Below are positions 8,402 through 59,619 of a stretch of 64,000 nucleotides of DNA, piece by piece. Source of the DNA: an uncultured Gammaproteobacteria bacterium (lineage in GTDB: Bacteria > Patescibacteriota > Patescibacteriia > CAIXNZ01); NCBI GenBank assembly GCA_964590345.1, contig CAZPVP010000002.1:9945-73944 (forward strand), read 5' to 3'. Below the pieces are notes generated by a model. It was not told where the DNA came from. It saw only the letters and a list, made by a program, of their open reading frames with translations, and did no database searches. The stretch's first letter is position 1, and the number at the start of each line of letters is the position of its first letter. The translations under genes were made by a program, and so were the position numbers.

Positions 8402-8403
8402 AT

Positions 8404-8841: not shown

Positions 8842-8850
8842 AAATTAAAA

Positions 8851-9978: not shown

Positions 9979-10043
9979 AATGTTATTTTTATTTAATTAA
10001 TTTCATTATTAATAGTATAACAAATTACGGACTTTTTGAAAAT

Positions 10044-43136: not shown

Positions 43137-43240
43137 GCAAATAAAATTTGTGATTACTGATTAAATTTACTTAATTTTGCTTATCCACACTGGATATTGA
43201 CAAAACATGTGAATTTGCTATAATAATTACAGAATATTAG

Positions 43241-43282
43241 AAAAAGGCGTCGGCTCTATTGGCCGATGGCCTTTTTCATTTT
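43241..43282 (-). terminator. terminator hairpin at the 3' end of the DUF3800 gene
   Basis: On the minus strand, AAAAAGGCCATCGGC-loop-GCCGACGCCTTTTT followed by CTAATATTCT. Confidence 0.45.
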
Positions 43283-44029
43283 AGCTAAAAAACCATCCGT
43301 CTTATGATGGTGAATATTAAAAGCGAAATTTCTAAAATCCTTAGTTAAAATGTTTACTCCCAAATTTTCTTTGATTTTTTTGACAAATTCCTGCTTTACA
43401 GATGATGGAGCAGAAATTATGCCATCTTTCAATAGTAATTCGTAATTAATTGCACCAGTTATAAGATCGGTTAATTGCAATAAATCATTTGTTCGTGAAT
43501 CAAGACGACAAACACCGGCGATTGCCAAACGATCAAACTTCTTATTTAAATTATTTTTAATATTGACTTCAAATTTACTCCTTTTGGGTGTAATTAAATT
43601 ATCGGCTAAAACAATTAAAACTTCGTTTTTTCTTAAATTTCCTTCCAAAAGATGCTGGGCAACTCTTTCATAAGCTAAAAAAGGATCACTATGAAATTCA
43701 TTTCTGAAATATTTGCTCCTTTTATCTATTGAATATGAGGTATAAAAAATACTTCTGGTACTAAATAAAGCTTCCAGAGCCAACAAATAAACATTTAATT
43801 TAGCTTTATTTAAATTATTAAATTTTAATTCCCACCAAAAATGATTGCATTCTCTAATATAACGCATTTTTTGCTGTAAATAATAAGGCTGGGAACATTT
43901 AATCATGCCTACTGTGAAATATGGCTGGGTTTCAATAGATAATGCTCCTGATTCATCTAAAAAGCAAAATGGGGTCCAGATATTTTTATAATCTCCTAAT
44001 GTTAAATTGTGATTATCATTATTTTCCAT
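43256..44029 (-). CDS. DUF3800 family protein (intact copy)
   Basis: N-terminal FCFLDESG signature. 257 aa. Confidence 0.65.
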   Translation of the reverse strand: MENNDNHNLTLGDYKNIWTPFCFLDESGALSIETQPYFTVGMIKCSQPYYLQQKMRYIRECNHFWWELKFNNLNKAKLNVYLLALEALFSTRSIFYTSYSIDKRSKYFRNEFHSDPFLAYERVAQHLLEGNLRKNEVLIVLADNLITPKRSKFEVNIKNNLNKKFDRLAIAGVCRLDSRTNDLLQLTDLITGAINYELLLKDGIISAPSSVKQEFVKKIKENLGVNILTKDFRNFAFNIHHHKTDGFLAKMKKAIGQ

Positions 44030-44036
44030 ATTAAAA

Positions 44037-45980
44037 TTAAAGAAAATTTAAATTATCCTTTTTGGCAAATTTTAAAAACTCATCAGCGATTTCATCTAAA
44101 TCATGATCAATTATTTTTTTACCTTTTAAATTAACCATTTTATTGCCTTCTTCATCTTTTTTATAAACATACTCACCGGAATTATCCTTACCTGATTTTT
44201 GGGATGTTGCCATGAAAATATTATAATCTTTTTTCGGTTTTTCATTTTCTAACCATTTTTGCAAAAACAAAACAGAAGTCTTAGTACCTGTATGAGGTTT
44301 AAATGTATTAACCTGCAAGCCAACTACTGCTAATATTCTAGCTTTATCCATTAAAAATTCCCTGACTTGCTGCATATTAGTATTATTAAAAACGCCTTGC
44401 GGCAAAACAATGGCTAAACGGCCACCTGGTTTAATAATATTTAATGACCGTTCAATAAATAAAATATGGCGTTCCATTTTATTTTTTAATTTGCCTTTAT
44501 CATTTTTCGCCAATTCATATTTATTTAATAAAGATTTTTCAATTATCTCACCGGCAAAAGGCGGATTGGACAATAAAATATCAAAATTAAAATATTTAAA
44601 ATTATCTTCATTATCCTTGTCTTTGGTATAATCATTGAATTTATAAAGCCTTTGCTGTAATTCTGCCCTGGCTCTTAATTTTTCACTTTCATTACCCATC
44701 CATTCTTGGGGATTTAAAGAATTTAATTTAAAAATATGAGAGCGACCATCGCCAGCTATTAGCATTAAAGCACGGGAAATTTTGACTGATTTTTCATCAA
44801 AATCAATGCCATATAAATAACGCTGAGCATATTCTCTCATTAATTCCTTATCCATGCTTAAAAATTCTTTTTTAACATGATTCATCGTATGGATTAAAAA
44901 TCCACCAGATCCACAAGCCGGATCAATCACATATTCTGTGGTTTGCGGATTTAACATTTTAACTGCCATATCAATAACATGACGCGGTGTAAAATATTGT
45001 CCCTTTTTCCCCTTAGCAATATCCGGTAATAAATATTCAAAAGCAGAGTCAATTACATCAAGATTGGCATCAAGTAATTTTATTTTTTCAAATTCACCAA
45101 CACAAACCGACAAGTGTCCCGGATTTAAATCAATTTTTTCATATTCATTAAAAATACCAGGCCATTCTTTTTTCGCACCATCAAAAAGCTGGCTAATATG
45201 ATCATAAGTTAATTGTGGATCTTTATATTGCCTAAATAATAATTCTTTATCTTTACGCTTTTTGGCCTCTTTCTCATCATATAATTTAGCGTAAATTAAT
45301 TTAAAAATCTCATTAAAACTATCAGCACCTGATCCAGCTAAAACCAATTCTTCTAATACGCGAATAATACTAACTAAATCAAAGTCAACCTCTAAATCAC
45401 TAATCGTTAATTTTTCATCCAAAACATCTTCAATATCCTGGTCAACTCTGGGAATATCACGCAAAGTGCTCTCAAATTGATCCGGATATTTACGATATAA
45501 AATAACTTTCTCATCGCCATTAGACCAAACGCCGATTGGCGCACCTTTAGAATTAACATAAGTTTTTAATTGTTCTAAACCTTTTTTCTCATCTGGCTTT
45601 TTGAGTTCAAAAATAATTAGGGCTGTTTCTTTATCCTTATGGAAAACTATAATATCAGCCGCTTTGACATGCACTTCCCCGCCAAAATGAATATTTTGTT
45701 CAATACCGATCCGGTCTAAAGGATAACCATATATTTTGATCAATTTATAAATCCATAATTGCCGAATGATTTCTTCCGGCTTAGATATTTTTTTTTCTTC
45801 GTTCAAAATTAAAATATCCTGATTGCGCACAGGATCTTTAACATAATATTTGCCGTCTTTGGCAACGATATCTAAAACTTCAGCAATTTTTATTCCTTTA
45901 AATTCCTTAAGGCCATATTCCAATTCAGGATCTTTAAAAATTTTAGTAATTACTTGATGCGCTAATTCTTTTTTAAGCAT
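44037..45980 (-). CDS. fused PD-ExK nuclease (HsdR_N-like) plus N6-adenine DNA methyltransferase; BcgI-A-like Type IIB/IIG RM subunit
   Basis: N-terminal AADIIVF...IIFELKKPD (D-x-ExK). MTase motif I VIDPACGSGGFL and motif IV LLSNPPFAG. At 647 aa its size matches the BcgI A subunit. The cognate S subunit lies 3.7 kb downstream at 39046-40374. Confidence 0.75.
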   Translation of the reverse strand: MLKKELAHQVITKIFKDPELEYGLKEFKGIKIAEVLDIVAKDGKYYVKDPVRNQDILILNEEKKISKPEEIIRQLWIYKLIKIYGYPLDRIGIEQNIHFGGEVHVKAADIIVFHKDKETALIIFELKKPDEKKGLEQLKTYVNSKGAPIGVWSNGDEKVILYRKYPDQFESTLRDIPRVDQDIEDVLDEKLTISDLEVDFDLVSIIRVLEELVLAGSGADSFNEIFKLIYAKLYDEKEAKKRKDKELLFRQYKDPQLTYDHISQLFDGAKKEWPGIFNEYEKIDLNPGHLSVCVGEFEKIKLLDANLDVIDSAFEYLLPDIAKGKKGQYFTPRHVIDMAVKMLNPQTTEYVIDPACGSGGFLIHTMNHVKKEFLSMDKELMREYAQRYLYGIDFDEKSVKISRALMLIAGDGRSHIFKLNSLNPQEWMGNESEKLRARAELQQRLYKFNDYTKDKDNEDNFKYFNFDILLSNPPFAGEIIEKSLLNKYELAKNDKGKLKNKMERHILFIERSLNIIKPGGRLAIVLPQGVFNNTNMQQVREFLMDKARILAVVGLQVNTFKPHTGTKTSVLFLQKWLENEKPKKDYNIFMATSQKSGKDNSGEYVYKKDEEGNKMVNLKGKKIIDHDLDEIADEFLKFAKKDNLNFL

Positions 45981-45981
45981 A

Positions 45982-46599
45982 TTATCTTGATAAATTTTTA
46001 ATTATTTTTCCTTTAATGTAGGTTTCCTCGCAAACAGGGATGATATCATATTTCGGATTTTCTGGCTGAAAAAATGTTCTGTTGCCTTTAAATTTTAAAC
46101 GTTTAACAGTAAAACCAATATCCATGACGTGAGCAAAAACAATATCATTATCTTTAAATTCATTGCCTTTTTGAACAAGCAAAAGGTCTCCGTCATGAAT
46201 ACCAGCTCCGATCATTGAATCGCCAAAAGCTTTAATAATAGTCAATTTGTCTGAAAATTCATGAACTTCAGAAGACAATTCTATCCAATGATCTTTTTGC
46301 TCAAAAACTTCTACTAAAGCTCCGCAAGGGGCTTCTCCCTCCATTTTTATTACTGGTTTAACATTTAGTGCGTCAAATCCTTTTTTTAAAATTTGAATTG
46401 ACCTAGCCACACCTTCATTTCTTTTGATAAATTTGCCATTTTCTAAAATTTCTAATAAATCTAAAACTGCTTGATTAGATTTTACATCTAACTCTCTTTT
46501 CATATCTTCAAAAGAAGGTCCAAAACCTGAAGATTTCAGCCAATCATAAATAATCTGAAGCAATTGCTTTTGCCTTTTTGTTATTGCATGGGGTTTCAT
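45982..46599 (-). CDS. second LexA-like repressor (wHTH plus S24 peptidase)
   Basis: TKRQKQLLQIIYDW...GFGPSFEDM at the N-terminus and AFGDSMIGAGIHDGDLLLV in the C-terminal region. Its stop lies 1 bp before the ATG of the RM nuclease-MTase gene. Confidence 0.75.
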   Translation of the reverse strand: MKPHAITKRQKQLLQIIYDWLKSSGFGPSFEDMKRELDVKSNQAVLDLLEILENGKFIKRNEGVARSIQILKKGFDALNVKPVIKMEGEAPCGALVEVFEQKDHWIELSSEVHEFSDKLTIIKAFGDSMIGAGIHDGDLLLVQKGNEFKDNDIVFAHVMDIGFTVKRLKFKGNRTFFQPENPKYDIIPVCEETYIKGKIIKNLSR

Positions 46600-46613
46600 A
46601 TGTCTATATTTTA

Positions 46614-46631
46614 ACTGACTATTTAGTCAGT
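46614..46631. promoter_or_regulatory. palindromic operator candidate ACTGACTA-TT-TAGTCAGT in the 5' UTR of the LexA-like gene
   Basis: Perfect 8-bp arms, 15-32 nt upstream of the start codon. Adjacent to TGTGGATAA (minus-strand sense). Confidence 0.45.
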
Positions 46632-46706
46632 AGTCAAATTATTTATCCACAAAAAAACATCCCCTATAGAAATGTTTTTTTACATAAAAAATATTTTATA
46701 AATTCC

Positions 46707-47600
46707 TTATTTATTTTCTTTCAATTTATCTAAAAATTTTATCACATCCAAATCTGGATAAACACTTAAACGCTTTAATTCAAACAAATCCTCTGGATCC
46801 TGCCAAGCATCCTGATCAAAAGTCAATCCGGCTTTATAACCGACTGCTTTGGCTAAAGCTTTAATTTCCTCGTTATATAAGCCAAATGGATAACAAATAA
46901 CTTCTGTTTCCCTGGCCAATAATTCTTTTAAATCGTCGCGGCTTTTTTCTAATTCGTACAAACGTTCATCAGCCGGCACTTGAGTCAATTTAGGATGCCA
47001 GACAGTATGGGAGCCGATTTCAACCAAACCGCTTTTATCCAATTCCACTACCTGCTCTTTGCTTAAATAATTTGGCCCGCCTACGCCAGTCATAATATAA
47101 ACTGATGATTTAACTTTGTATTTCTGCAAAATCGGCCAGGCATTAGTATAAAAATTCTCATTGCCGTCATCAAAAGTAATGGCTATAATATTATTTTTTG
47201 GCAAAACGCCTTGCGATAAATAATCAACTATCTCACTGACAAAAACCGGCTCATAATTATTGTTAATTATTTCTTGGATAATTTGTTCAAAATTGGCTGG
47301 CTCAATATAATAACTTTGAGTAATTTTACTCGCCGTAGCCGGTGCCTGATCAATATGATGGAAATTTAAAATCGGCACAAAAACTTTTTCGTCAGCTTTA
47401 ATCTCTACCAAATCAATTTTTTGCTGTTTCTTGTTTTCCTCTAAAAAATCGCCTTTATATTCGCCTGGCGCGGACCTTAAACTAACCACAAATAAATCAG
47501 CTAGAATAACAATAACGACAACTAAAATAACAATTATTGCGTCAAACAAATGATGGTGCTTTTCTTCGAGTTTTTTCTTTATCTGCTCTAAATCAGGCAT
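46707..47600 (-). CDS. polysaccharide deacetylase (NodB/CE4 family) with N-terminal TM anchor
   Basis: IAITFDDGNENFYTNAWPIL ... GSHTVWHP NodB motifs. Confidence 0.75.
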   Translation of the reverse strand: MPDLEQIKKKLEEKHHHLFDAIIVILVVVIVILADLFVVSLRSAPGEYKGDFLEENKKQQKIDLVEIKADEKVFVPILNFHHIDQAPATASKITQSYYIEPANFEQIIQEIINNNYEPVFVSEIVDYLSQGVLPKNNIIAITFDDGNENFYTNAWPILQKYKVKSSVYIMTGVGGPNYLSKEQVVELDKSGLVEIGSHTVWHPKLTQVPADERLYELEKSRDDLKELLARETEVICYPFGLYNEEIKALAKAVGYKAGLTFDQDAWQDPEDLFELKRLSVYPDLDVIKFLDKLKENK

Positions 47601-47712
47601 ACATTTTTAATTTAATTTTAATCTTTTATTATTTGCCTCTATCTTAGCACTAAGCTTTAAATTTGACAATAAAAAAACTCGTTTTATTTAACGAGTAATT
47701 TTTTAATTATTT

Positions 47713-49872
47713 TTAACTTAAAGGTAAAATAATTTTAAAACTAGTTCCTTTGCCTAATTCGCTTTTTACTCCTATTTTGCCGCCGTGAACATGAACAATC
47801 CATTTGCAAATAGCTAAACCTAAACCAGTCCCCTTTTCTTTAACTTGATATTCAATTCTATAAAAGCGAGAAAAAATATAGGGCAGATCTTTTCGCGCAA
47901 TGCCAATACCTTGATCAGCAACCAGCAAGCAAATGGTATCATTTTTTTTATACAATTCAATCTTAATCTCTTTACCTACGGGCGTATATTTTAAGGCGTT
48001 GCTTATTAAATTAAATAAAAGCCCCTGAAGCTTTTCTTTATCTCCCATAAAATAAATGCCCTTTTCAATCTTTAATTGCATTTTTATCTCTTTATCTTCA
48101 GCTAAAATCGCTGAATCTTCAGCCATTTCTTTAACTAAGTCGCTAAAATCAAAATATTCTTTATTAATTTTTATCTGACCGACATCGGCCTTTGACAAAA
48201 AAATTAAATCTTTAATTAAATTTGAAAGTCGATCAACTGATCTCTCCAATCTTACAAAAACTTTTTTGCTTTCTTGTTCATCAAGCTTTTTATTGTTAAT
48301 TAAGCTTAAATTGCCTTTTAAAACAGCTAATGGCGTTTGCAATTCATGAGAAATATCAGCCATAAAACGAGACTGGTTTTTATTTAATTCCCTTAATTCC
48401 TTGGTTCTCTGGTTAATTTTTTCTTCCATACTAAAAAGGGATTTCTTTAAATCATTATAAAGAAAGATATTTTCAAAAATCAAATTCAATGTGTCAATTA
48501 AATTTTCAAAAAGCTGCAGGTCCTGCGGATATAAATCTTCTTGGGAAAGTTTATGACCGAAAAAGAAAAAAGCTGTTAATTGCCCGTTACAATAGACTGG
48601 CAAAATCAAATTAACGCCTGATTTTTCAAATAGCTTCTGCCGTTGCAACAATTCTTTATCCTTTAAAATATCTTGCAAAACTGGCTGTTTATCCCTGATT
48701 AATATAATATGGTTATATTGATTAAAATATTCATAAATTTTTGTCGGGCATTTAACTTTCTTGAAAAAATCAACCAATTTCCGACTAAAATTATGATTTT
48801 TAACTAAAAAGGGGTTTTTATCTTTCTGTAAAATGACCAATAAAATTTTATTTATTTTCAACTTATTCTCAATAATTGAACTGAAATAATCGAAAAAATT
48901 ATCAAAATCAATCTGCCTGCTGCATTTTTCATTAATTTCTTTCAGCACTTTATTGGAATCATAAGGATAACGATAAAAAAATTTATCTGTTTTTTTCTGA
49001 AAATATAATTTAAATCTGGGATAAATCGCAATAATCAACACAGCGGAAATTATTGAACTGAAAGTCGGCGCCAAATCAAATAAAGCAAATACTTGATCAA
49101 AAACAAAAATCAGGGAAAGATAAATCACCAAAAACAAACCAAAAGTCATAGCGTACAGAATCGTTTTTTGAATAAAGAGCCTGATGTCCATCAAGCGATG
49201 GCGGACAATGGCATAAGTGGTGAAAGCAACAAAAATCACGCTAAAAAATGGGGAAAGTTTTGCTAAAAACGAATTGTTGAATAAAAAAGGAAGTGGCAAA
49301 CTAAAAGAGAGAGAAAAAAATAATAACAAAAACAAACCCAATAAAAAATATCTAATCTGCATTTTTTCAACTCCTCTGACTTTTCTATACTTACTAAAAA
49401 TCTTAACTATTGTAGCCATGCCCATTAAAATAAAAAAAAGCGAACCGTAAATAAAAAAAGGCCCGAAAATATATTCTTCTACACCAAATTCTCCCACAAT
49501 TATATCATAAAGAATAAATTTTTTATACAGATCACTTAGACAAAAAATGCTAAAAATCAAAGTTAATATAAAAGGAATAATTATTTTAAACTTTATTCTT
49601 ATTTGATCTTTGAATGGAAAAAACAAAGAAAAAATAAATAACAAATAAAGTGCTAAAGCCGCCATAATCCATGAGATTTGCGACCAAAATAATGCTTGAT
49701 TGCTATCTTTAGCATGATCAACGATAAAATTCGCTACAATCCAAACTAAAACTGAAAATATAAAAATAATGAAAATTTTATTAGCTACCGATTTTCTATT
49801 TTTAACCAATATCAAAACCGCTAAAGCAAAGTTAATACCGAATGTTATGGTCAAAATAATTAAATCCAGCAT
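47713..49872 (-). CDS. sensor histidine kinase with large multi-TM N-terminal domain
   Basis: About 8 TM helices at the N-terminus, then HisKA (ADISHELQTPLAVLKGNL) and HATPase_c (GTGLGLAICKWIV). Confidence 0.85.
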   Translation of the reverse strand: MLDLIILTITFGINFALAVLILVKNRKSVANKIFIIFIFSVLVWIVANFIVDHAKDSNQALFWSQISWIMAALALYLLFIFSLFFPFKDQIRIKFKIIIPFILTLIFSIFCLSDLYKKFILYDIIVGEFGVEEYIFGPFFIYGSLFFILMGMATIVKIFSKYRKVRGVEKMQIRYFLLGLFLLLFFSLSFSLPLPFLFNNSFLAKLSPFFSVIFVAFTTYAIVRHRLMDIRLFIQKTILYAMTFGLFLVIYLSLIFVFDQVFALFDLAPTFSSIISAVLIIAIYPRFKLYFQKKTDKFFYRYPYDSNKVLKEINEKCSRQIDFDNFFDYFSSIIENKLKINKILLVILQKDKNPFLVKNHNFSRKLVDFFKKVKCPTKIYEYFNQYNHIILIRDKQPVLQDILKDKELLQRQKLFEKSGVNLILPVYCNGQLTAFFFFGHKLSQEDLYPQDLQLFENLIDTLNLIFENIFLYNDLKKSLFSMEEKINQRTKELRELNKNQSRFMADISHELQTPLAVLKGNLSLINNKKLDEQESKKVFVRLERSVDRLSNLIKDLIFLSKADVGQIKINKEYFDFSDLVKEMAEDSAILAEDKEIKMQLKIEKGIYFMGDKEKLQGLLFNLISNALKYTPVGKEIKIELYKKNDTICLLVADQGIGIARKDLPYIFSRFYRIEYQVKEKGTGLGLAICKWIVHVHGGKIGVKSELGKGTSFKIILPLS

Positions 49873-49933
49873 AAAAAATAAGAAAATGGTCGGTTAAGTT
49901 TAGACTCCCCCGACCATTAAATTATGGCAAAAA

Positions 49934-50599
49934 TTAGCCATTTTGTAAATTTTCATCCTTAAAGCTTCCGACCAAGTTGTTTGGATTAACAACATAATCA
50001 AAAACTTGAGGATTATTTTCTTTGAGATGACTTACCATCATCTTAAATGAAACGACGCAAGGCAAAACCCAGCTGCCAAAATAAAATCGCGGAATGCCGA
50101 AAGGTTCTATCCAGAAGCAGTGTTTATGGGCTTCCAGAAAAAACCTAAAATCAATCGTAAAGTACATATAGCCAAGACTGTTACGCAGACATACATGGTA
50201 AACGATTTTACCAATATCCACAGTAAAGTTTGACTGTTTCTCTCTGAATTTTTTAAGAGCCGCTACTTGGGAAATTTCCACTTCATGATTTTGAACTTCC
50301 TGGCATTGATGGCTCTCAAAAAATTCCGTTTCTGGCCGCTTTTCACCGAATTTACTGAAAAGCGGCAGTGGCAAAGGATATGAGCGAATCAAGCGCATGC
50401 CAGCCATCACTTCCTGCGAAGCTTTATCAAATATTAAAAAAAGCATTGACTGGCTATCATACTCATCCTCGACCCTGCCTTGCGGATATTTTACCGACTC
50501 AAACCACTTCAGTTCCTGACAGTAAACCTGGTAAATCAGCTCCTGATAAGCTTTAAGCTCTTCAGGATTTCCCACTGCCTTAATTATCCGGTCAAACAT
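49934..50599 (-). CDS. GNAT-fold N-acyl synthase of the LuxI/FeeM (autoinducer-synthase-like) family, tentative
   Basis: Pattern ...GMRLIRSYPLPLPLFSKF...EISQVAALKKFR resembles the core of N-acyl amino acid/AHL synthases. 221 aa. Confidence 0.4.
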   Translation of the reverse strand: MFDRIIKAVGNPEELKAYQELIYQVYCQELKWFESVKYPQGRVEDEYDSQSMLFLIFDKASQEVMAGMRLIRSYPLPLPLFSKFGEKRPETEFFESHQCQEVQNHEVEISQVAALKKFREKQSNFTVDIGKIVYHVCLRNSLGYMYFTIDFRFFLEAHKHCFWIEPFGIPRFYFGSWVLPCVVSFKMMVSHLKENNPQVFDYVVNPNNLVGSFKDENLQNG

Positions 50600-50616
50600 T
50601 TTTCTACTCCTTTAGT

Positions 50617-51567
50617 CTAAGAGCTTTTTTCCTGCTGAAAAAAACAAAGTTTTTCCCCAAAGCAACCTTGCCGAATCTCTTGGAAAAGCGGATGGTTTTG
50701 CCAAAGATCCTGCAAATTCTGCCAAGGCGCTTTTTCCTTTGGCTCAAAAATATTACCTGCCTTTTTCTGGTAAAAAAAATTGCAGGCAAAAACCGTACCA
50801 TCAGAGCCAATATAAGCAATTTTCCGGCCACAGTCGCAGGGCGCATAGCGGACGTCTTTCAGGTCGTAAATTTCTGGATACTCCAGATGCGAAAAGCACC
50901 AAAGTTCCAGATAAGGCTTATCTGGCCCAATCATTTGAACAACTTCCAGAATCTGCTCCACTAGCTCTAAACGCAATGGAACCAATTCAGAAGTTGCCCT
51001 TCCCCCTAAAATCAATGCCTGAATTTCCAGGCCAGCCACGCCGATCCGGCTGACAAAATCGTAAATTTCAGGCAGTTCCCGAACATTGAGCCTGATCGGC
51101 ACAACTTCGGGAATTACGGTTAAAGCCGTAGCATTGGCCGCATAAATCAAATTGGCAATTACTTGATTCAAAAGCTCGGGTCTGCTTTGCCGGATTTGCC
51201 CGTAAACTTCTGGCTTGAGCGTATCAAAAGTCACGTGCAAGACGTCCAAACCGACCGCTACCAGCGCATCCAGCACCTTTGGATCAGCCAATTCCAGATT
51301 AGTATTAATCTGAACTTGAGCGCCAGAATCTTTAGCATGCTTAATGCAGTCAATCAGAGTTTCCCAGCAAACAAGAGGATCACCGCCTGTAAAAGAAACT
51401 TTTTGCGGCAAAAAAGCTTCAATTATAGACTTAATCGCTTCGCCAGAAAGTTCCTTGGTTTTCCAACCGTCATTATTGATGCAGTAAACGCAGCGGACAT
51501 TACATGCGGTTGTCAGTTGGAATTCAATCTTTTGCAATGTTTGCATTTTCAACCTCCTTTTTGGCAA
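50617..51567 (-). CDS. radical SAM protein with SPASM-type C-terminal Cys cluster
   Basis: CNVRCVYC CX3CX2C motif. C-terminal auxiliary cluster region (YAPCDCGRKIAYIGSDGTVFACNFF). Confidence 0.75.
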   Translation of the reverse strand: MPKRRLKMQTLQKIEFQLTTACNVRCVYCINNDGWKTKELSGEAIKSIIEAFLPQKVSFTGGDPLVCWETLIDCIKHAKDSGAQVQINTNLELADPKVLDALVAVGLDVLHVTFDTLKPEVYGQIRQSRPELLNQVIANLIYAANATALTVIPEVVPIRLNVRELPEIYDFVSRIGVAGLEIQALILGGRATSELVPLRLELVEQILEVVQMIGPDKPYLELWCFSHLEYPEIYDLKDVRYAPCDCGRKIAYIGSDGTVFACNFFYQKKAGNIFEPKEKAPWQNLQDLWQNHPLFQEIRQGCFGEKLCFFQQEKSS

Positions 51568-52268
51568 CAGCCAAAATGTCTACGCCAGCATAAACTGGCC
51601 GAATCTTAATCTGCTGAAAATTAGCTTGAGCCAATAATTCCGCCATTTCTTTTGCTGTATAGAAAAAATCACGACTTGCAGTGCTTTGCATTGAAAGCAA
51701 CAGATTGTAAACAGCCAACAGCGCAAACCAGGGCAGATAAAAACATGTTTTGGCCAGACAGAACCAGTCTCGGCGCCGAAAAATCTGCTTAAAATGCTCC
51801 GGTAAAACAGGCGCCGGATTATTGGTTCGCGGCGTGGCCACCGCCAAAATACCTCCCGGCTTCAAGACGCGGAAAAATTCAGCCAAGGCAAGCTTTGGCT
51901 GGACTAAATTGTAAAGGGCATGGCAACAGCAAACCGCATCAAAACACCCCTCACTAAAAGGCAATTTTTGATTCAAATCAACCTGCTGCCATTTAAAATT
52001 TGAATCCAAATTCTTGGCTCGGGCCTTTTTTAGCATAGTTTCTGAAATATCAATACCAGTGAAAAAAATTCGCCCTTTGTTTTTTGAATCAAAATAGTGG
52101 CAAAGATTGCCTGTGCCGCAGCCAGCATCAAGCACATTTTGGCCAGGTTGCAAATTAAGCGCCAATAAAATTTCTGACATCAGATCCTGAAAAGGCAACA
52201 GAAAAAGCTTGAAGTCAATCAGGTAAGCATAAGGCGCCCAGATGATTTTTTTCAAAAACGTAGCCATA
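51524..52268 (-). CDS. class I SAM-dependent methyltransferase
   Basis: VLDAGCGTGNL motif I. The start is set at MATFLKK, which is preceded by AAAGGAGG. The longer ORF-track N-terminus is read-through. Confidence 0.7.
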
Positions 52269-52330
52269 ATTTTCCTCCTTTTAGCACTTTGTGCCAATTT
52301 GTTTTGCAAATTTGAATTTAAAGAACTTTT

Positions 52331-52362
52331 AAACAAAAAATTACCTTTTAATTAAAAGGTAA
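52331..52362 (-). terminator. terminator of the response-regulator gene
   Basis: 22-bp perfect palindrome TTACCTTTTAATTAAAAGGTAA followed on the minus strand by TTTTTTGTTT. Confidence 0.5.
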
Positions 52363-52433
52363 TATATTACTTATTACAGAAGCCTAAATTTTTAATTAAT
52401 ACTTCTTTAATTAAAAATTAAAAAAATATTAAT

Positions 52434-53105
52434 TTATTCATCAGAAATTTTATAACCACTGCCATGCACAGTTTTAATTAACTTCTTCCTAAAACCATCA
52501 TCTATTTTTCTCCTCAAATAACGCACATGCACATCAACAGTATTAGTAAATGGGTCAACATTCATATCCCAAACATGTTCTAAAATCATGCTCCGTGTTA
52601 AAACAACATTCGGATTTCTCATAAAATATTCTAAAAGATTAAATTCCCTATGCCTTAATTCTATTTTCTTATTTCCCCTTTTTACTTCATGAGTTTTTAA
52701 ATCCATCTCTAAATCAGCAATTTTAAGCTTATTACTAACAAGACTTTTGTTTCTATTCAAAAGAGCCCTAATTCTCGCAATTAATTCCTCAATAGCAAAA
52801 GGTTTAGTTAAATAATCATTAACACCCATATCAAAAGCTTCAACTTTCTTTCTTACTTCATTTTCTACAGTTAAAATAATAATTGGCAAATTTGTTTTTT
52901 GCTCTTTGATTTTTTTAAAAACTTCCAAACCATAAGTATCTGGCAATCTTAAATCCAAAACTACTAAATCATAATCATTAACTAAAGCCAAATAGGATCC
53001 ATCCTTACCATTAGCAGCAATATCTACAGCAAAATGCTCAGCTTGCAACCCTTTTTTAATAAAGCTAGCAATATCTTTTTCATCTTCAATAATTAATATT
53101 CTCAT
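52434..53105 (-). CDS. OmpR-family response regulator
   Basis: Receiver domain (MRILIIEDEKDIA...DLRLPD) and a winged-helix C-terminus (RHREFNLLEYFMRNPN...). Confidence 0.9.
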   Translation of the reverse strand: MRILIIEDEKDIASFIKKGLQAEHFAVDIAANGKDGSYLALVNDYDLVVLDLRLPDTYGLEVFKKIKEQKTNLPIIILTVENEVRKKVEAFDMGVNDYLTKPFAIEELIARIRALLNRNKSLVSNKLKIADLEMDLKTHEVKRGNKKIELRHREFNLLEYFMRNPNVVLTRSMILEHVWDMNVDPFTNTVDVHVRYLRRKIDDGFRKKLIKTVHGSGYKISDE

Positions 53106-53440
53106 AATTTTATTATTTTATTTGTCTCTATTTTAACAACCAATAATAAATTTGGCAATAAAATCATTTTATTTATTTAAATTGTAATTTATTCAAGATT
53201 AAAAACACTTAAAATATAAATTAATTTAAAATTAAATGACTTTTTTTAAATTTTTTTAAAAAACTTATTAACCAGATATCCACAAATTTAAAAAAAATTA
53301 ATAAATATCTTATCCTTTATTAATTTTTAAAGGAATACAATGTGTTTATTAATTAAAAAAATTCTAAATTATAACCAAAATCATTTCCCAAAACAAAAAA
53401 AGCTTAAAATTTTTAAAATCCCAAACAAAGGAGGATATTA

Positions 53441-53620
53441 ATGAATGAGACAAAAAAAATGCAAATTTATTGCGCTTGGTGCGGCAAATTTTTGAAACTA
53501 GTTAAATGTACTGAAAAACAATCCAGCAAAATTTCGCATGGTATTTGCCAGCAATGTTATCAAAAAACAATGGCTGAACTAGAAAAAATAAATCCAATGC
53601 CTGCCAAGAAAAAAAATTAA
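53441..53620 (+). CDS. small Cys-rich zinc-ribbon protein, paralog of 35718-35939
   Basis: 59 aa ORF below the ORF-track cutoff, with a strong RBS AAAGGAGG. It shares the CAWCGKF...CQQCYQK motif with the CARCGKQF...CESCYK protein. Confidence 0.4.
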   Translation: MNETKKMQIYCAWCGKFLKLVKCTEKQSSKISHGICQQCYQKTMAELEKINPMPAKKKN

Positions 53621-53660
53621 ACCGAGCTGGCTACTAACAACAAGCTAGCTCAACTAAACA

Positions 53661-54983
53661 ATGAAATTCTTAAATATTTTTTTACCAAACAAATTTTTAC
53701 AAAATAGTTTTATTTTCGTCAGTGGCAATATTATAGCCGGTTTTATAGGATACTTATTCCATCTTTTAATTTCCAGAAAATTAACAATTGAAAACTATGG
53801 CGAATTACAGGCCTTGATTTCCTTATTAAATATCTTGGCTGTGCCTACCGTGGCTATTAATTTTTTTATCATCAAACATGCCTCTGCTTTTTATGAAAAG
53901 AAAAATTATCTGGCCAATTACAAATTTTACCGCTGGCTAAAGAAAAAAATTCTGATTTTAATTCTATTTTTCTCTCTGTTTTTTCTTATAGCCATGCCTT
54001 TTTTAAAAAATTATCTACATTTAAACGAATACTATAATCTTTTAATCGTGCTTTTAATAATCAATCTCAGCTTACTAGTTGTTGTTCCTAAGGGCATTTT
54101 AAACGGCTGGCAAGATTTTAAAAATCTGACATGGAATAATATCTTGAGTGCAATCATAAAATTATTTTTAGGCGTTTTTTTAGTTTATATCTTTATCACC
54201 ACTGCTTCTGCTTTAACTGGCTTTTTAGCTGGGGCTTTATTCAGCTATTTATTTCTCAGTTATATCCTTAAAAAGAAAAAAAAAGACATAAAAAAAACTG
54301 GCAAGGTGTTAAAAAACACAAAACATATTTTTGACAAACATAAGATTATTAAAGAAATTAAAAAATATATTCTACCTATCCTCTTTTTTAGTTTATTTAT
54401 CGCGCTTTTAACTTCCTTTGACATGCTGATGGTAAAAAATCTGACCAATCCAAAATTAGCCGGTTTTTATGGTGCTTTTAATATTTTAAGCAAGATTATT
54501 TTCTGGGCAAGCTCTTCAGTAGTGCTGGTTGTCTTGCCAATGGCCTGCGCTAAAAATTCAATTAAACAACGATTGAGCCGAAAAACTTTAATTTATGCCA
54601 ACGCTCTAATTATCTTTATTTGTCTAACCGGGTTCACTGCTTATTTCTTCTTTCCTGACTTGATTATCAACCTGCTTTTCGGTGCCAAATATTTACCTCT
54701 GGCTAACAGCCTTTGGGCTTTTGCGCTCATGGCTCTTGCTTTATCTTTATTAAATCTGGAAGCCAATTTGGCCTATGCCAGATATGACTTCAACATTTGC
54801 TACATTCTCCTTGCCACTTTAATTTTGGAAATAATTTTTATTTATTTTTTCAGCCAAAACCTGCTCAAGATCGCTCTGACTATAGCTATCATCCAATTTA
54901 TGGGCTACCTAGCCGCTCTTATTTACAATCGAAAAGCAAGCAAACAATGCCAATTAACAAATCCAACTAAAATAACTGCCTAA
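53661..54983 (+). CDS. Wzx-like polysaccharide/oligosaccharide flippase (MOP superfamily)
   Basis: 440 aa with about 12 TM helices and the N-terminal pattern typical of polysaccharide biosynthesis proteins. Confidence 0.7.
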   Translation: MKFLNIFLPNKFLQNSFIFVSGNIIAGFIGYLFHLLISRKLTIENYGELQALISLLNILAVPTVAINFFIIKHASAFYEKKNYLANYKFYRWLKKKILILILFFSLFFLIAMPFLKNYLHLNEYYNLLIVLLIINLSLLVVVPKGILNGWQDFKNLTWNNILSAIIKLFLGVFLVYIFITTASALTGFLAGALFSYLFLSYILKKKKKDIKKTGKVLKNTKHIFDKHKIIKEIKKYILPILFFSLFIALLTSFDMLMVKNLTNPKLAGFYGAFNILSKIIFWASSSVVLVVLPMACAKNSIKQRLSRKTLIYANALIIFICLTGFTAYFFFPDLIINLLFGAKYLPLANSLWAFALMALALSLLNLEANLAYARYDFNICYILLATLILEIIFIYFFSQNLLKIALTIAIIQFMGYLAALIYNRKASKQCQLTNPTKITA

Positions 54984-54987
54984 AAAT

Positions 54988-55932
54988 ATGCCTGCCAAAT
55001 TAATTTCAATAATCATTCCGGTTTATAATGAGGAAAAAAATATTATCCTGCTTTATCGCGATTTGAAACAAATTCTGAATGAACAGAGGCATGATCATGA
55101 AATTATTTTTATTAACGACGGCAGCCAAGATAACTCCAGCCAAGAATTAACTAAAATCGCCAACGAGGATGAAAAAATAAGAATCATTGAATTCTCACGC
55201 AACTTTGGCAAGGAAGTCGCTCTAACAGCCGGGCTGCATCATTGTTTAGGCGATGCTTGTCTGATTTTAGACGCTGATTTGCAGCATCCGGTTGAATTAA
55301 TCCCTCAATTTTTAAACAAATGGGAACAAGGCAATGAAATTGTCATTGGCATCAGAAAAAAAACAAAAACCAACCCGGCAAAAAAAGTAGGCTCTTATTT
55401 TTTCTATAAAATTATGAAAAAAATTTCAGATACGGAAATCATGCCCAATTCCACTGATTACAGGCTTTTGGACAAGAAAGTAATCACCGAATTCAATAAA
55501 TTCACGGAAAAAAACCGGCTAACGCGCGGCTTGATTGACTGGCTGGGTTTTAAACGCGATTATATTTATTTTGAAGCCAAAGCCAGAGCCAATGGCCGGG
55601 CCAATTACAGTTTTTTAAAACTCTTTAGGCTGGCTTTGAATAGCATTGTTTCTTTGAGTTTATTCCCATTAAAATTGGCGGGGTATCTGGGCATTTTTAT
55701 CATGATAAGCTCTGGGCTGATCGGACTTTTCATTTTCATTGAAAAATATCTTTTGCACGATCCCTGGAACTTGAATTTTTCAGGGCCAGCAATTTTAGCT
55801 ATCATCATTTTATTTTTAGTCGGCATTATTTTAAGCTGTCTAGGATTAATTGCTTTGTATATTGCCAATATTCATGGCGAAGTGATTAATCGGCCGATTT
55901 ATGTCATTAGAAAAAAAGAAAATTTTCAATAA
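54988..55932 (+). CDS. GT2 polyprenyl-phosphate glycosyltransferase (GtrB/DPM1-like) with C-terminal TMs
   Basis: ISIIIPVYNEEKNI...INDGSQDNS...DADLQHP motifs plus 2 C-terminal TM helices. Confidence 0.8.
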   Translation: MPAKLISIIIPVYNEEKNIILLYRDLKQILNEQRHDHEIIFINDGSQDNSSQELTKIANEDEKIRIIEFSRNFGKEVALTAGLHHCLGDACLILDADLQHPVELIPQFLNKWEQGNEIVIGIRKKTKTNPAKKVGSYFFYKIMKKISDTEIMPNSTDYRLLDKKVITEFNKFTEKNRLTRGLIDWLGFKRDYIYFEAKARANGRANYSFLKLFRLALNSIVSLSLFPLKLAGYLGIFIMISSGLIGLFIFIEKYLLHDPWNLNFSGPAILAIIILFLVGIILSCLGLIALYIANIHGEVINRPIYVIRKKENFQ

Positions 55933-56067
55933 ATGCGGATCTGCTAATAAGACGAATCTACAAATTTTCCCCTTTTTACTCTTATTATCCTTTCCCCTAT
56001 ATTCCCCTTTTATAAATTGTAACTTTATAAAAACCTTATCTAACCTTATAACGATCCATATAAGCTT

Positions 56068-57060
56068 ATGATTTACACAAAAAAAATTAAATATAGCTTC
56101 ATTATTCCAGTTAAAGAAATCAACGATTATATTAGGGAATCCGTGCCGAAAATTCTGGAAATAAACAGGGATAATTTTGAAATTATAATTTATCCAGACA
56201 AAACCAGCGATGAAACTTGGCCCAAAACCAGACAAATCGCCACCGGTCATATTAGCCCGGCACAAAAAAGAAATCTGGCGCTCAGGGACGCCGACGGCGA
56301 AATTCTGATTTTTATTGATGATGATGCTTATCCGAAAAAAAACTTTTTGGACATTCTTGACCAAGACTTTAATTTGCCTCAAATTGCGGCTGTTGGCGGA
56401 CCGGCTTTGACTCCGCCGCATGATACCTTCTGGCAAAAAGTTTCCGGCGCTATATTTTTAAGTGCTTTAAGCGGCGGCTGCCCTGACAGATACGTTCCCA
56501 AGGGTTCAAAAAGATTTGTTGAAGATTGGCCAAGCGTCAACCTGTCAGTGCGCAAAAAATATTTTGGTCAAATCAATGGCTTTGACTGCGATTTTTGGCC
56601 CGGCGAAGATACAAAATTCTGTCTTGATTTAATTAATAAAACTCAGAGCAAACTTTTATATGACCCGGAATTAATTGTCTGGCATCACCGCCGCTCGGGT
56701 TTTTTTAAACATTTAAACCAAATTGCTGGCTATGGCCTGCATCGCGGTTTTTTTGCCAAAAAATTCCCCAAAACCTCATTTAAATTTAAATATTTTACTC
56801 CATCTTTTTTTCTGCTCTTTGTTATCAGCGGCGGAATTACCAGTTTTTTTTCATTTTTTGTTTTTAAAATCTATTTAATCGGCTGGCTAGCCTATATAGC
56901 CGCTTTGAGCAAAGCCGCTTTAGATATAAAAAAATACGAGAAAAACATACTGATCGTTTTAAATTCCCTTTATTTTATATTTTTCACTCACTTAGTTTAC
57001 GGTTTTAAGTTTATCCAAGGGTTTGTTTTTACTAATAATCTTAGAAGTAAATTAAGGTAA
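56068..57060 (+). CDS. glycosyltransferase family 2 with C-terminal membrane anchor
   Basis: SFIIPVKEINDYI ... IFIDDDAYP GT2-A fold motifs. Confidence 0.7.
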   Translation: MIYTKKIKYSFIIPVKEINDYIRESVPKILEINRDNFEIIIYPDKTSDETWPKTRQIATGHISPAQKRNLALRDADGEILIFIDDDAYPKKNFLDILDQDFNLPQIAAVGGPALTPPHDTFWQKVSGAIFLSALSGGCPDRYVPKGSKRFVEDWPSVNLSVRKKYFGQINGFDCDFWPGEDTKFCLDLINKTQSKLLYDPELIVWHHRRSGFFKHLNQIAGYGLHRGFFAKKFPKTSFKFKYFTPSFFLLFVISGGITSFFSFFVFKIYLIGWLAYIAALSKAALDIKKYEKNILIVLNSLYFIFFTHLVYGFKFIQGFVFTNNLRSKLR

Positions 57061-57091
57061 GCTCACGAATGAGCCAAAAAAACAAAAATTT

Positions 57092-58546
57092 ATGAAAATT
57101 GCCATTTCGTTTCCACCCATAGAATCAACCAAAGGCGTTCCGCTTTTAACCCAGAACCGCCAATTCCAATGGTTTAACAATCCCACTTATATTTATCCGG
57201 TCATACCGGCTTACGCCGCCACTTTATTAAAACAAAACAGCTATGAAATTTTTTGGGATGACGCTATTGCGGAAAATTTAAGCTATGAAAAATGGTTAAA
57301 GAGAATAATAACTGAAAAACCGGATCTGATCGCCATTGAAACAAAAACACCTGTCATAAAACGCCATTGGCAAATTATAAATGAGTTAAAAATTAAAAAT
57401 CCAAAATTTAAAATTGTTTTAATGGGCGATCATGTAACAGCACTACCCAATGAATCAATGTTAAATTCACAGGTTGATTTTGTTATTCAAGGCGGCGACT
57501 TTGATTTTATTCTTTTAAGCATCGCGAATCAACTTTCTGGCTGCGGTGAATTTGAAAACGGTGTCTGGTACCGCAAAAACCAGAAAATTAAAAACACCGG
57601 CTTATATAGTTTTCATGGGCATTCTCTAGACAATCTGCCTATGATTGACCGCAATTTAACCAAATGGCAGTTATACGCTTACAAAAACGGGAATTTTAAA
57701 TACCAACCCGGCGCTTACATGATGAGCGGCCGCGACTGCTGGTGGGGCAAATGCTCTTTTTGCTCATGGACAACACTTTTTCCGGGCCGTAGTTTTCGCG
57801 TCAGATCAGTTAAAAATGCGCTGGACGAAGTCGGGCATTTAATAAGCTCGGGCGTTAAAGAAATTATGGAAGATTCCGGCACTTTGCCTGTTGGCCGCTG
57901 GCTGGAAGAATTCTGCCATGGCTTAATTGCCCGCGGCTATAATAAAAAAATCAAAATTAGCTGCAATATGAGAATCAATGCTATAAAAAATTTAGAAACA
58001 TGGCGATTAATGAAACAAGCTGGTTTTCGCTTAATTTTATTCGGGTTAGAATCAGCCAACCAAAAAACTTTAAATCGCATTAATAAAAATCTCAAAGTGG
58101 AAGAAATTGAAAATAGCTTAAAATTATGCAAAATAGCCGGGCTTGAGCCTCATATCACGGCCATGATCGGTTATCCATGGGAAACAAAAAAGGACGCCCA
58201 AAAAACAATTTGTCTGGCCAAAAATTTATTTAAAAAGGGTTATATTGATACTTTGCAGGCCACTATTGTTATCCCCTATCCGGGCACCCCGCTTTATAAA
58301 TACTGCAAAAAAAACAACTTACTAAATTTCATTGATTATGATCGTTTTGATCAACGAGAACAAGTTATGAAATCAGAATTAACTACTAAAGATGTCAAAG
58401 AATTAAGCCAAGAACTTTATAAATCATTTATTACACCAAAATTTATATTTAAAAAAATTATTAATATCAAATCCTTTAATGATCTCAAATTTTTCTGGCG
58501 AGCTGGGCTTAAAATTTGGGGACATTTAACTGATTTTAGTAAATAA
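57092..58546 (+). CDS. B12-binding-domain radical SAM protein
   Basis: N-terminal B12-binding-like domain and the CWWGKCSFCSW Cys motif. 484 aa. Confidence 0.7.
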   Translation: MKIAISFPPIESTKGVPLLTQNRQFQWFNNPTYIYPVIPAYAATLLKQNSYEIFWDDAIAENLSYEKWLKRIITEKPDLIAIETKTPVIKRHWQIINELKIKNPKFKIVLMGDHVTALPNESMLNSQVDFVIQGGDFDFILLSIANQLSGCGEFENGVWYRKNQKIKNTGLYSFHGHSLDNLPMIDRNLTKWQLYAYKNGNFKYQPGAYMMSGRDCWWGKCSFCSWTTLFPGRSFRVRSVKNALDEVGHLISSGVKEIMEDSGTLPVGRWLEEFCHGLIARGYNKKIKISCNMRINAIKNLETWRLMKQAGFRLILFGLESANQKTLNRINKNLKVEEIENSLKLCKIAGLEPHITAMIGYPWETKKDAQKTICLAKNLFKKGYIDTLQATIVIPYPGTPLYKYCKKNNLLNFIDYDRFDQREQVMKSELTTKDVKELSQELYKSFITPKFIFKKIINIKSFNDLKFFWRAGLKIWGHLTDFSK

Positions 58547-58550
58547 TAAT

Positions 58551-59594: not shown

Positions 59595-59619
59595 AAATTA
59601 AATATTAATTAATTTAATT

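Follow-up and report, generated by a model that had tools for sequence, protein, structure and literature searches.

Organization of the locus

The locus described here lies in a 64,000-nt stretch of DNA from the Patescibacteria/Candidate Phyla Radiation (CPR) lineage (assembly GCA_964590345.1, contig CAZPVP010000002.1), which is referred to in its whole length as the window. It consists of a two-component system (TCS) in which three biosynthetic genes, hereafter the cassette, are embedded between an OmpR-type response regulator and a multi-transmembrane histidine kinase. The three genes encode a class I methyltransferase (MTase), a radical S-adenosylmethionine (SAM) enzyme and an N-acyltransferase. 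Genes were called from an open reading frame (ORF) listing with translations, followed by Pfam and NCBIfam scans, and the order on the minus strand is regulator, hairpin with a T-run, MTase, radical SAM enzyme, N-acyltransferase, second hairpin, HisKA_7TM kinase and NodB deacetylase. An earlier first-pass annotation of this DNA had already proposed the five co-oriented genes in this order, with a NodB deacetylase after the kinase, and the ORF listing, Pfam and NCBIfam all agree with it. The coding features are as follows.

52434-53105, minus strand: OmpR/PhoB-type response regulator (PF00072 and PF00486)
51524-52267, minus strand: class I SAM-dependent methyltransferase of 247 aa, UbiE/BioC-like (Methyltransf_11/25/31)
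50617-51546, minus strand: radical SAM enzyme of 309 aa with a CX3CX2C motif and a reduced, SPASM/Twitch-like Cys cluster (PF04055, PF13186)
49934-50599, minus strand: N-acyltransferase of 221 aa with a predicted LuxI/FeeM fold, a distant TIGR03694-like N-acyl amino acid synthase (NAS)
47713-49872, minus strand: sensor histidine kinase with 8-9 transmembrane (TM) segments (HisKA_7TM), a cytoplasmic linker domain, HisKA and HATPase_c
46707-47600, minus strand: NodB-family polysaccharide deacetylase downstream of the kinase (PF01522, E 2e-26)

An identical order is found in assemblies from NCBI, ENA, JGI and Logan, which argues against an artefact of assembly. The regulator belongs to the OmpR/PhoB family, as had been proposed: the receiver (PF00072) scores 98.1 bits and Trans_reg_C (PF00486) 98.2 bits, each at E about 1e-28, and no NCBIfam equivalog cut-off is reached. 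The kinase matches PF16927 (HisKA_7TM, 51.7 bits), HisKA (56.9 bits) and HATPase_c (95.8 bits), all above cut-off. The roughly eight N-terminal TM helices attributed to it earlier correspond to 8-9 hydrophobic segments in residues 1-283, making it an almost wholly membrane-embedded sensor with no extracytoplasmic domain. Its N-terminal 477 aa match no NCBIfam model at E up to 10.

Conservation and composition of the cassette

The cassette enzymes are rare. In word-indexed searches of 5.8 billion proteins, the acyltransferase and the radical SAM enzyme each have only seven close homologues, which come from Candidatus Falkowbacteria or Parcubacteria where a source is named. Wherever a homologue has enough DNA around it (L003, L004, L005 and L007/L008), it lies in the same order of regulator, MTase, radical SAM enzyme, GNAT acyltransferase and 7TM kinase. 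This order is thus present in at least four independent assemblies, and the synteny of the trio with the TCS on which the first-pass annotation depended is seen in relatives. In L003 the kinase is likewise followed by a NodB deacetylase, as it is in L009 and L010, two loci with a different cassette, and a LexA-like gene is also found downstream in L003; L004 is preceded by the same divergent glycan cluster as the window. Among these loci of the window clade, protein identity is 77-86% for the regulator, 53-65% for the kinase, 57-78% for the radical SAM enzyme, 51-70% for the MTase and 44-71% for the acyltransferase. The acyltransferases fall into two deep subgroups, one of the window, L003 and L005 and the other of L004 and L007, with ∼45% identity between them, unlike the radical SAM enzymes, of which L005 is the sole outlier. 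These discordant patterns indicate a mosaic history, with recombination inside the cassette.

The cassette also stands apart in base composition. Its three genes have 40-44% GC and a GC content at third codon positions (GC3) of 0.41-0.44, in a window of 32% GC with a median GC3 of 0.25 (standard deviation 0.07), and they are the strongest real GC3 outliers among 50 ORFs. The TM-coding region of the kinase is not GC-enriched. The excess recurs in all four related loci (L003, L004, L005 and L007) despite protein identities of 45-78%, and in several other cassette types the gene before the kinase shows it as well. A chimeric assembly does not account for the jump in GC, since the same junctions are present in independent assemblies, including 1.5-kb Logan contigs that span the acyltransferase to the kinase. 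The excess fits a foreign origin of the cassette, continuing cassette exchange, or both.

A constant frame around variable cassettes

GTDB species genomes were scanned with the regulator as seed, followed by tblastn, ORF calling, local hidden Markov model (HMM) searches and Pfam scans. In species-representative genomes of Patescibacteria, 15 or more additional loci were found to carry an OmpR regulator, another cassette and a homologous 7TM kinase. The cassettes are as follows.

L026, L027 and L028: MTase and NAS-like GNAT
L023 and L011: MTase and NAS-like GNAT fused into one protein
L012, L019 and L024: ThiF-like protein and NAS-like protein
L009 (5958-7759) and L010 (895-2742): a different MTase, an AdoMet (SAM) decarboxylase and an unknown 225-aa protein
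L013: membrane protein, B12-radical SAM enzyme, AdoMet decarboxylase and a weakly GNAT-like protein
L015 (7351-8988) and L016 (2365-4008): unknown 245-aa protein and a pyruvoyl histidine-decarboxylase-like enzyme (PF02329, E 4e-34)
L017 and L021: one weakly GNAT-like protein
L032: no cassette, with regulator and 7TM kinase directly adjacent across a 16-nt gap (8001-10676)

Regulator identity is 78-86% among the related loci, those with another cassette included. In L009 and L010 the regulator shares 82-84% identity with that of the window despite the different cassette, whose gene content suggests a polyamine-derived product. The fusion protein of L023 (8794-10086) has 430 aa, and that of L011 (1216-2511) is a 341-aa ORF with a 78-aa fragment before it, a split that may reflect a frameshift. 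By Rosetta-stone reasoning, such fusions argue that MTase and acyltransferase act in one pathway, and the window clade is the radical SAM-containing variant of a core MTase-plus-NAS design. Pfam returned weak GNAT or T_hemolysin matches (E about 0.03), or no match, for the unknown last genes of other cassettes, and to call these acyltransferases is a guess.

The kinase membrane domain and the cassette co-vary

In an alignment of 20 kinases, identity was compared between the TM region (window residues 1-300) and the DHp+CA core (residues 486-719). Between the window clade and L009/L010 the TM region is 28-34% identical and the core 57-61%, as against 54-63% and 57-72% within the window clade. 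A similar picture is given by L013 and L015/L016 (TM 41-42%, core 78-83%) on the one hand, and by L015 and L016, which share a cassette type (TM 81%, core 75%), on the other. L026 and L027 form an apparent exception (TM 43%, core 77%), but their NAS proteins are just 27% identical. Core identity is 55% or more in 26 locus pairs. In the 13 of these whose genes before the kinase are unrelated or have diverged extremely, the ratio of TM to core identity is 0.45-0.56; in the other 13, with homologous genes at that position, it is 0.75-1.08. The two classes separate perfectly, with a Spearman rho of 0.90 over pairs that are not independent of one another.

Because the TM/core ratios track cassette relatedness, the unit that is exchanged or co-diverges appears to be the cassette together with the membrane sensor. 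This co-variation is the strongest evidence here for detection of the cassette product by the kinase, a step that we infer from the alignments.

Regulatory DNA

Six candidate regulatory elements were recognized in and upstream of the locus.

53198-53235, minus strand: four TTAAT/TTAAG boxes with ∼11-bp phasing, between the regulator and the glycan cluster, a candidate regulator-binding array
53130-53158, minus strand: promoter-like TTGCCA-17-TAAAAT, TG-extended, upstream of the regulator, 10/12 consensus positions, a putative promoter
52395-52432, minus strand: second phased TTAAT array, between the regulator stop codon and the cassette, a putative binding site
52334-52363, minus strand: conserved hairpin ATTACCTTTTAATTAAAAGGTAAT with a T-run, terminator- or attenuator-like, upstream of the MTase
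49921-49949, minus strand: promoter-like TTTACA-17-CATAAT, TG-extended, overlapping the last acyltransferase codons, 10/12 consensus positions, a putative promoter
49873-49918, minus strand: hairpin AATGGTCGG...CCGACCATT with a T-run, directly before the kinase start codon

The palindromic terminator that the first-pass annotation placed between regulator and MTase proved to be a real hairpin with a T-run, in which two of the 12 predicted pairs show compensatory changes across six loci. In the second hairpin, two of nine predicted pairs do so in four loci. The promoter-like block of the regulator is kept in L004 and L009, and that at 49921-49949 is near-identical in L003, L004, L005 and L007. 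Since the latter overlaps the codons of the invariant acyltransferase C terminus (...NLQNG), conservation of this end of the protein may in part be a constraint on the DNA. With conserved hairpins and promoter-like elements in these positions, the locus looks like three transcription units, of which the synthase cassette would be separately controlled. An Rfam scan of 46500-54000 at E up to 1 matched no family, and hence no known riboswitch or leader.

The four-box pattern at 53198-53235 has one other match in the 64 kb, the array at 52395-52432, with one mismatch. Shuffles of the whole window gave 0 matches, and a local AT-rich Markov model gave P = 2.5e-4. Phasing of the upstream array is kept in L004, L005 and L009. 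Over seven loci, which include loci with AdoMet decarboxylase cassettes, boxes are 11, 22, 33 or 44 nt apart in 19, 22, 17 and 16 counts, as compared to 0-4 counts at other distances. Operators of the OmpR/PhoB family typically have a direct-repeat period of 11 bp, and the TTAAT boxes are the predicted binding sites of the regulator. Phased boxes before both the regulator and the cassette are what an autoregulated loop would need. The divergent intergenic region in which the first array lies (53106-53300) has 15-19% GC and shares further conserved blocks with L004 and L009, such as TTGTATT...ATTAAT...TATTTATTAA.

These features bear on another account of the locus, that a horizontally acquired three-gene island came to lie between regulator and kinase by chance and has no functional link with them. 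The trio is indeed the strongest GC3 outlier of the window, it is bracketed by hairpins, and the identity patterns of its acyltransferase and radical SAM enzyme are mosaic. However, a biosynthetic cassette occupies the same position across many Patescibacteria lineages, the order within the window clade has been kept over deep divergence, the TM sensor co-varies with the cassette, and the same phased boxes precede different cassettes. A fortuitous insertion is accordingly an explanation to which we give very little credence.

Enzymes of the cassette

The acyltransferase matches PF13444 (Acetyltransf_5, the OlsB/NAS/haemolysin-type GNAT family) at 27.3 bits, above the cut-off of 22.4; of its homologues, P0005 reaches 23.9 bits and P0007 just 15.6. 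An AlphaFold model built on seven homologues (predicted local distance difference test, pLDDT, 72; predicted template modelling score, pTM, 0.76) has a LuxI/FeeM-type GNAT fold. Its best PDB matches are the acyl-homoserine lactone (AHL) synthases BjaI, RpaI, TofI, EsaI and LasI and the N-acyl amino acid synthase FeeM, with Foldseek E values of 8e-9 to 1e-4, template modelling scores of about 0.55-0.65 and identities of 11-18%. Searched with a profile, 1.8 billion representatives contained 1088 relatives at E up to 1e-3, of which the closest are 22-30% identical. When the window acyltransferase and 35 relatives were scanned, 35 of the 36 matched TIGR03694, 13 OlsB and 12 TraI. LuxI-type synthases share a cluster of N-terminal positions (R, F, W, D, D, R, E, S, R), which we map by LasI/EsaI numbering. 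Of these, W32, D45, D48, R69, E108 and S110 are invariant in the window clade, and the first and last Arg are replaced by I22 and Q111; the outgroup consensus, in contrast, retains RLRY...W and EISR. The LuxI/FeeM-like GNAT proposed in the first-pass annotation therefore holds at the level of the superfamily, in that the profile matches and the predicted fold place the protein in the NAS/LuxI/OlsB superfamily.

In Pfam the MTase is matched by numerous models of class I MTases, with E values of 1e-22 to 1e-23, and all its NCBIfam matches are under cut-off; by these profiles it is a generic UbiE/BioC-like class I enzyme. Its start is the ATG at 52267 (MATFLKK...), which is preceded by AGGAGG and matches the N termini of relatives. 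An upstream TTG at 52336, which would add 23 aa or encode a leader peptide, was rejected as the start: the frame is interrupted in L005 and L007, and relatives begin MAT(F/L).

The radical SAM ORF starts at the ATG at 51546, and the 309-aa protein that it encodes has an identical database entry, P0008. With an overlap of 23 nt between this ORF and the end of the MTase gene, stop codon included, the two genes are probably in one transcription unit. The CX3CX2C motif (CNVRCVYC; C15, C19 and C22) is invariant, and PF04055 is matched at 70.5 bits (cut-off 29.5). The SPASM-like C-terminal Cys cluster reported earlier is present in reduced form only. PF13186 is matched marginally (24.0 bits, cut-off 21.5), but TIGR04085 is missed (17.6 bits, cut-off 27). 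The C terminus has invariant C237, C239, C255 and C301, plus C217, arranged as CxC-X10-G-X4-C followed by a distal Cys, and the full seven-Cys SPASM motif for two auxiliary clusters is absent from it. This pattern suggests a Twitch-like remnant with a single auxiliary cluster. No equivalog cut-off was reached among MoaA, MftC, PqqE, NirJ, AhbC/D, W-cofactor maturase, viperin and Tes; the best NCBIfam equivalog match is TIGR04317, at 73.9 bits against a cut-off of 380. With all equivalogs far under cut-off and the nearest database protein outside the clade only 27% identical, the enzyme is not a housekeeping maturase, an identity that would have told against the reading of the first-pass annotation.

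The next-nearest relatives of the radical SAM enzyme, at about 50 bits, are peptide maturases of the SPASM/PqqD type. Together with a PF13186 score above cut-off, this raises the possibility that the three enzymes tailor a ribosomally synthesized and post-translationally modified peptide (RiPP), with the TCS acting as in nisin-type autoinduction. A candidate precursor could be the small Cys-rich ORF beyond the regulator.

53441-53620, plus strand: small zinc-ribbon-like protein, CxxC...HGICxxC, divergent from the regulator

This ORF, which has just weak Pfam zinc-ribbon matches, was rejected as a radical SAM substrate. It is kept beside the regulator not only in L004 but also in L009, whose cassette is different and contains no radical SAM enzyme, and the suggestion in the first-pass annotation that it might be a precursor peptide thus falls away. 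Since the zinc-ribbon ORF and the adjoining flippase gene are both kept in L009 with its different cassette, they belong to the constant frame and not to the cassette. The same annotation had found no other precursor, and across the related loci no conserved small ORF that could encode a radical SAM substrate was found within or beside the cassette; the TTG leader frame is not conserved. In addition, the radical SAM enzyme has no RiPP recognition element (RRE) or PqqD domain, unlike its distant relatives P0169, P0170 and P0173, and sister loci keep MTase and NAS without the radical SAM enzyme, two of them as a fusion protein. A RiPP pathway is therefore very improbable.

A different function is raised by two lipid enzymes. 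Among proteins of solved structure, the closest in sequence to the radical SAM enzyme is GDGT-MAS, which couples lipid tails in archaea (E 3e-9, core only), and among NCBIfam models the tetraether lipid synthase Tes is matched at E 6e-14. The cassette could accordingly produce an OlsB-like membrane aminolipid that is methylated and radical-modified, with the kinase monitoring membrane composition and adjusting lipid and glycan synthesis. Such envelope-lipid homeostasis would suit the OlsB matches among acyltransferase relatives, a kinase that lies almost entirely in the membrane and the envelope genes in the neighborhood, and it would also explain the co-variation of cassette and TM domain. 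On the other hand, the AdoMet decarboxylase, histidine-decarboxylase-like and ThiF-like enzymes of sister cassettes suggest diverse small amine-derived molecules and not bulk lipids, rapid cassette replacement beside a conserved regulator is typical of signal/receptor diversification and untypical of pathways for structural lipids, and a cassette bracketed by terminators and preceded by boxes suggests inducible, low-level production. Weighing both sides, we regard lipid homeostasis as unlikely, though the likeliest of the alternatives considered.

Neighboring genes

On the far side of the regulator, a surface-glycan cluster is transcribed divergently.

53661-63699, plus strand: divergent surface-glycan cluster, candidate TCS regulon

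Its order is a Wzx-like flippase, four GT2 glycosyltransferases, a B12-radical SAM enzyme and an ATP sulfurylase/APS kinase fusion. The flippase has the same position in L004 and L009, and L004 has the same glycan neighbors, including recurring B12-radical SAM and GT2 genes. The B12-binding radical SAM enzyme (57092-58546) and the fusion of PUA, ATP-sulfurylase and APS-kinase domains (61996-63699) hint at a methylated and/or sulfated surface polysaccharide, so that the product of the cluster is possibly sulfated. The cluster is the presumed output of the TCS.

Downstream of the deacetylase, the segment at 42480-46599 encodes a LexA-like S24 repressor, a restriction-modification methylase (N6 DNA methylase with HSDR_N), a DUF3800 protein and an NYN-domain protein. 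It is probably a defence or mobile island, and these genes are probably unrelated to the signaling locus. No tRNAs were found in the 64-kb window.

A model for the circuit

On balance, though without strong conviction, we read the locus as an autoinducer-type signaling module of Parcubacteria/Falkowbacteria-like Patescibacteria, with product chemistry, kinase sensing, binding of the boxes by the regulator and output through the glycan cluster as its predicted elements. The module would comprise the regulator with its own promoter and hairpin, the inducible three-gene cassette, and the polytopic 7TM kinase with the NodB deacetylase. The LuxI/FeeM-fold enzyme would N-acylate an amino acid or related amine from an activated fatty acyl donor, the SAM-dependent MTase would methylate the N-acylated product, and the radical SAM enzyme would make one further change by radical chemistry, for example by dehydrogenating the molecule, forming a C-C bond or modifying the tail. 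The resulting amphipathic product would partition into the membrane and be detected by the TM domain of the kinase. Once phosphorylated, the regulator would bind the TTAAT boxes that recur every 11 bp before the cassette, which would provide positive feedback, and those in the divergent region shared with the glycan cluster, which would provide the output. The first-pass annotation had suggested a modified N-acyl or peptide-derived signal that the locus's own kinase senses; the co-variation of TM domain and cassette supports sensing of the cassette product by the kinase, but the peptide-derived option is now unlikely.

Several observations weigh against this signaling model. Some concern the co-variation: the two deep acyltransferase subgroups (45% identity) are not mirrored in TM identity within the window clade, and L032, which has no adjacent cassette, keeps a TM domain 63% identical to those of L017/L021. 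L032 could be an orphan receptor ("eavesdropper") or could have lost its cassette. Recombination tracts that merely span neighboring DNA could also account for part of the co-variation. Others concern the synthase. When the acyltransferase was checked against the families named for it, PF13444 was reached and TIGR03694 was its sole NCBIfam match, but the latter (64.7 bits, E 8.4e-18) falls short of the cut-off of 111.95 and is confined to the N-terminal half (residues 11-124 on profile positions 15-129 of 241), and the LuxI family PF00765 is matched at 13.7 bits (E 0.046, residues 18-75 only) against a cut-off of 24. In the window clade, I22 and Q111 (EISQ, not EISR) stand in place of two Arg that LuxI and TIGR03694-like relatives conserve, so that the amine substrate, SAM or an amino acid, cannot be named. 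The model of the radical SAM enzyme is of low confidence (pLDDT 56, with the C-terminal 75 residues below 50) and its fold search returned generic radical SAM cores only (viperin, BlsE, DesII, SkfB and SuiB), from which no substrate class can be derived. AT-rich intergenic DNA inflates TTAAT counts, though the local model still gives P = 2.5e-4. Finally, CPR bacteria are generally considered unable to make fatty acids, which leaves the acyl donor uncertain.

A bioactive N-acyl amino acid derivative could also serve as an antimicrobial or host-directed effector under TCS control, with the kinase sensing a host or competitor cue or, as in lantibiotic autoinduction, the effector itself. Long-chain N-acyl amino acids are antibacterial, and the products of FeeM-type NAS enzymes were discovered as antibacterials; FeeM is among the best fold matches of the acyltransferase. 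CPR bacteria are episymbionts, for which host manipulation is plausible, and the foreign composition of the cassette (GC3 0.41-0.44 versus 0.25) is common in accessory metabolite clusters. However, neither the ORF listing nor Pfam revealed a transporter or immunity gene in the locus, and an external cue would not predict co-variation of the TM domain and cassette; if the effector were autoinduced, this account would merge with the signaling model. We consider a dedicated effector quite improbable.

The signaling model can be extended, as a possibility that we hold to be doubtful, to a polymorphic, pherotype-like system in which a constant OmpR regulator, kinase core and glycan regulon are combined with swappable modules of cassette and 7TM sensor for different N-acylated amines or amino acids. 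The methylated, radical SAM-modified N-acyl amino acid of the window clade would then be a chemically new class of autoinducer. If true, this would be the first self-made signal family assigned to these episymbiotic bacteria with reduced genomes.

CPR/Patescibacteria are a large, mostly uncultured group with minimal genomes and dependence on a host, and how they sense one another or their hosts is essentially unknown. With three enzymes, one kinase, one regulator and candidate operator sites, the circuit encoded here is small enough to test, and its reconstruction in E. coli is feasible. Across the family, the membrane domain of the sensor varies together with an exchangeable cassette, which suggests a general rule for pairing orphan 7TM kinases with ligands, and the cassette points toward new N-acyl signal chemistry, including a radical SAM tailoring step without a characterized relative. 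With the glycan cluster next to it, the circuit is also tied to the cell surface, through which episymbionts attach.

Comparison with known systems

The closest precedent is a set of 18 pairs of CPR LuxI homologues and adjoining sensory kinases that were proposed as candidate complete quorum sensing systems (Bernard et al. 2020, mSystems, PMC7567580). These pairs resemble the window in having a LuxI-like GNAT gene next to a membrane sensor kinase in Patescibacteria; the acyltransferase clade of the window scores below the LuxI Pfam cut-off. A term search of the main text of PMC7567580 found no instance of "radical SAM", "acyltransferase" or "N-acyl". Literature searches on HisKA_7TM domains and on CPR quorum sensing turned up no account of this architecture other than that paper.

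PrsR, of the PrsK/PrsR exosortase loci, is a sigma-54-dependent regulator. Like the window, these loci with a TIGR03694 NAS have a NAS-type GNAT beside a multi-TM kinase and exopolysaccharide genes; unlike them, the window has an OmpR-type regulator, a kinase whose N terminus matches no NCBIfam model, and a CPR host. The exosortase analogy drawn in the first-pass annotation is thus sound as a functional likeness, but does not extend to membership of TIGR03694, to the kinase N terminus or to the class of regulator. Linkage of NAS and kinase is reportedly known from exosortase loci through work by Craig and colleagues in 2011.

The architecture also invites comparison with better-studied signaling systems. 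In Vibrio LuxM/LuxN and CqsA/CqsS, the synthase gene of a lipid-like autoinducer neighbors that of a kinase, and the signal is bound within the membrane by the multi-TM domain of this kinase; in the window too the presumed synthase gene adjoins a polytopic sensor kinase. LuxM, however, is not LuxI-like, CqsA is a pyridoxal phosphate enzyme, the hybrid Vibrio kinases feed a phosphorelay, and the Vibrio loci have neither an embedded MTase or radical SAM enzyme nor an OmpR partner. The pherotype loci comQXPA of Bacillus and agrBDCA of staphylococci have a conserved regulator and kinase core, and their polymorphism is concentrated in the genes for signal production and in the membrane sensor, which vary together. 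Loci of the window type share with them this co-variation of cassette and sensor and the embedding of production genes in a TCS locus; the comQXPA and agrBDCA signals, however, are modified ribosomal peptides, whereas the window has no precursor peptide and its enzymes point to small N-acylated amines or amino acids. At the level of the enzyme, the acyltransferase resembles FeeM and the AHL synthases BjaI, RpaI, TofI, LasI and EsaI in its predicted fold and in its W, DxxD, R and E-x-S positions, and departs from them in its low identity (11-18%), its two replaced Arg and its score below the PF00765 cut-off. Set beside these systems, the elements that appear to be new are the variant with radical SAM enzyme and MTase, the frame of regulator, cassette and kinase with interchangeable cassettes, the co-variation of sensor and cassette, and the phased operator-like boxes.

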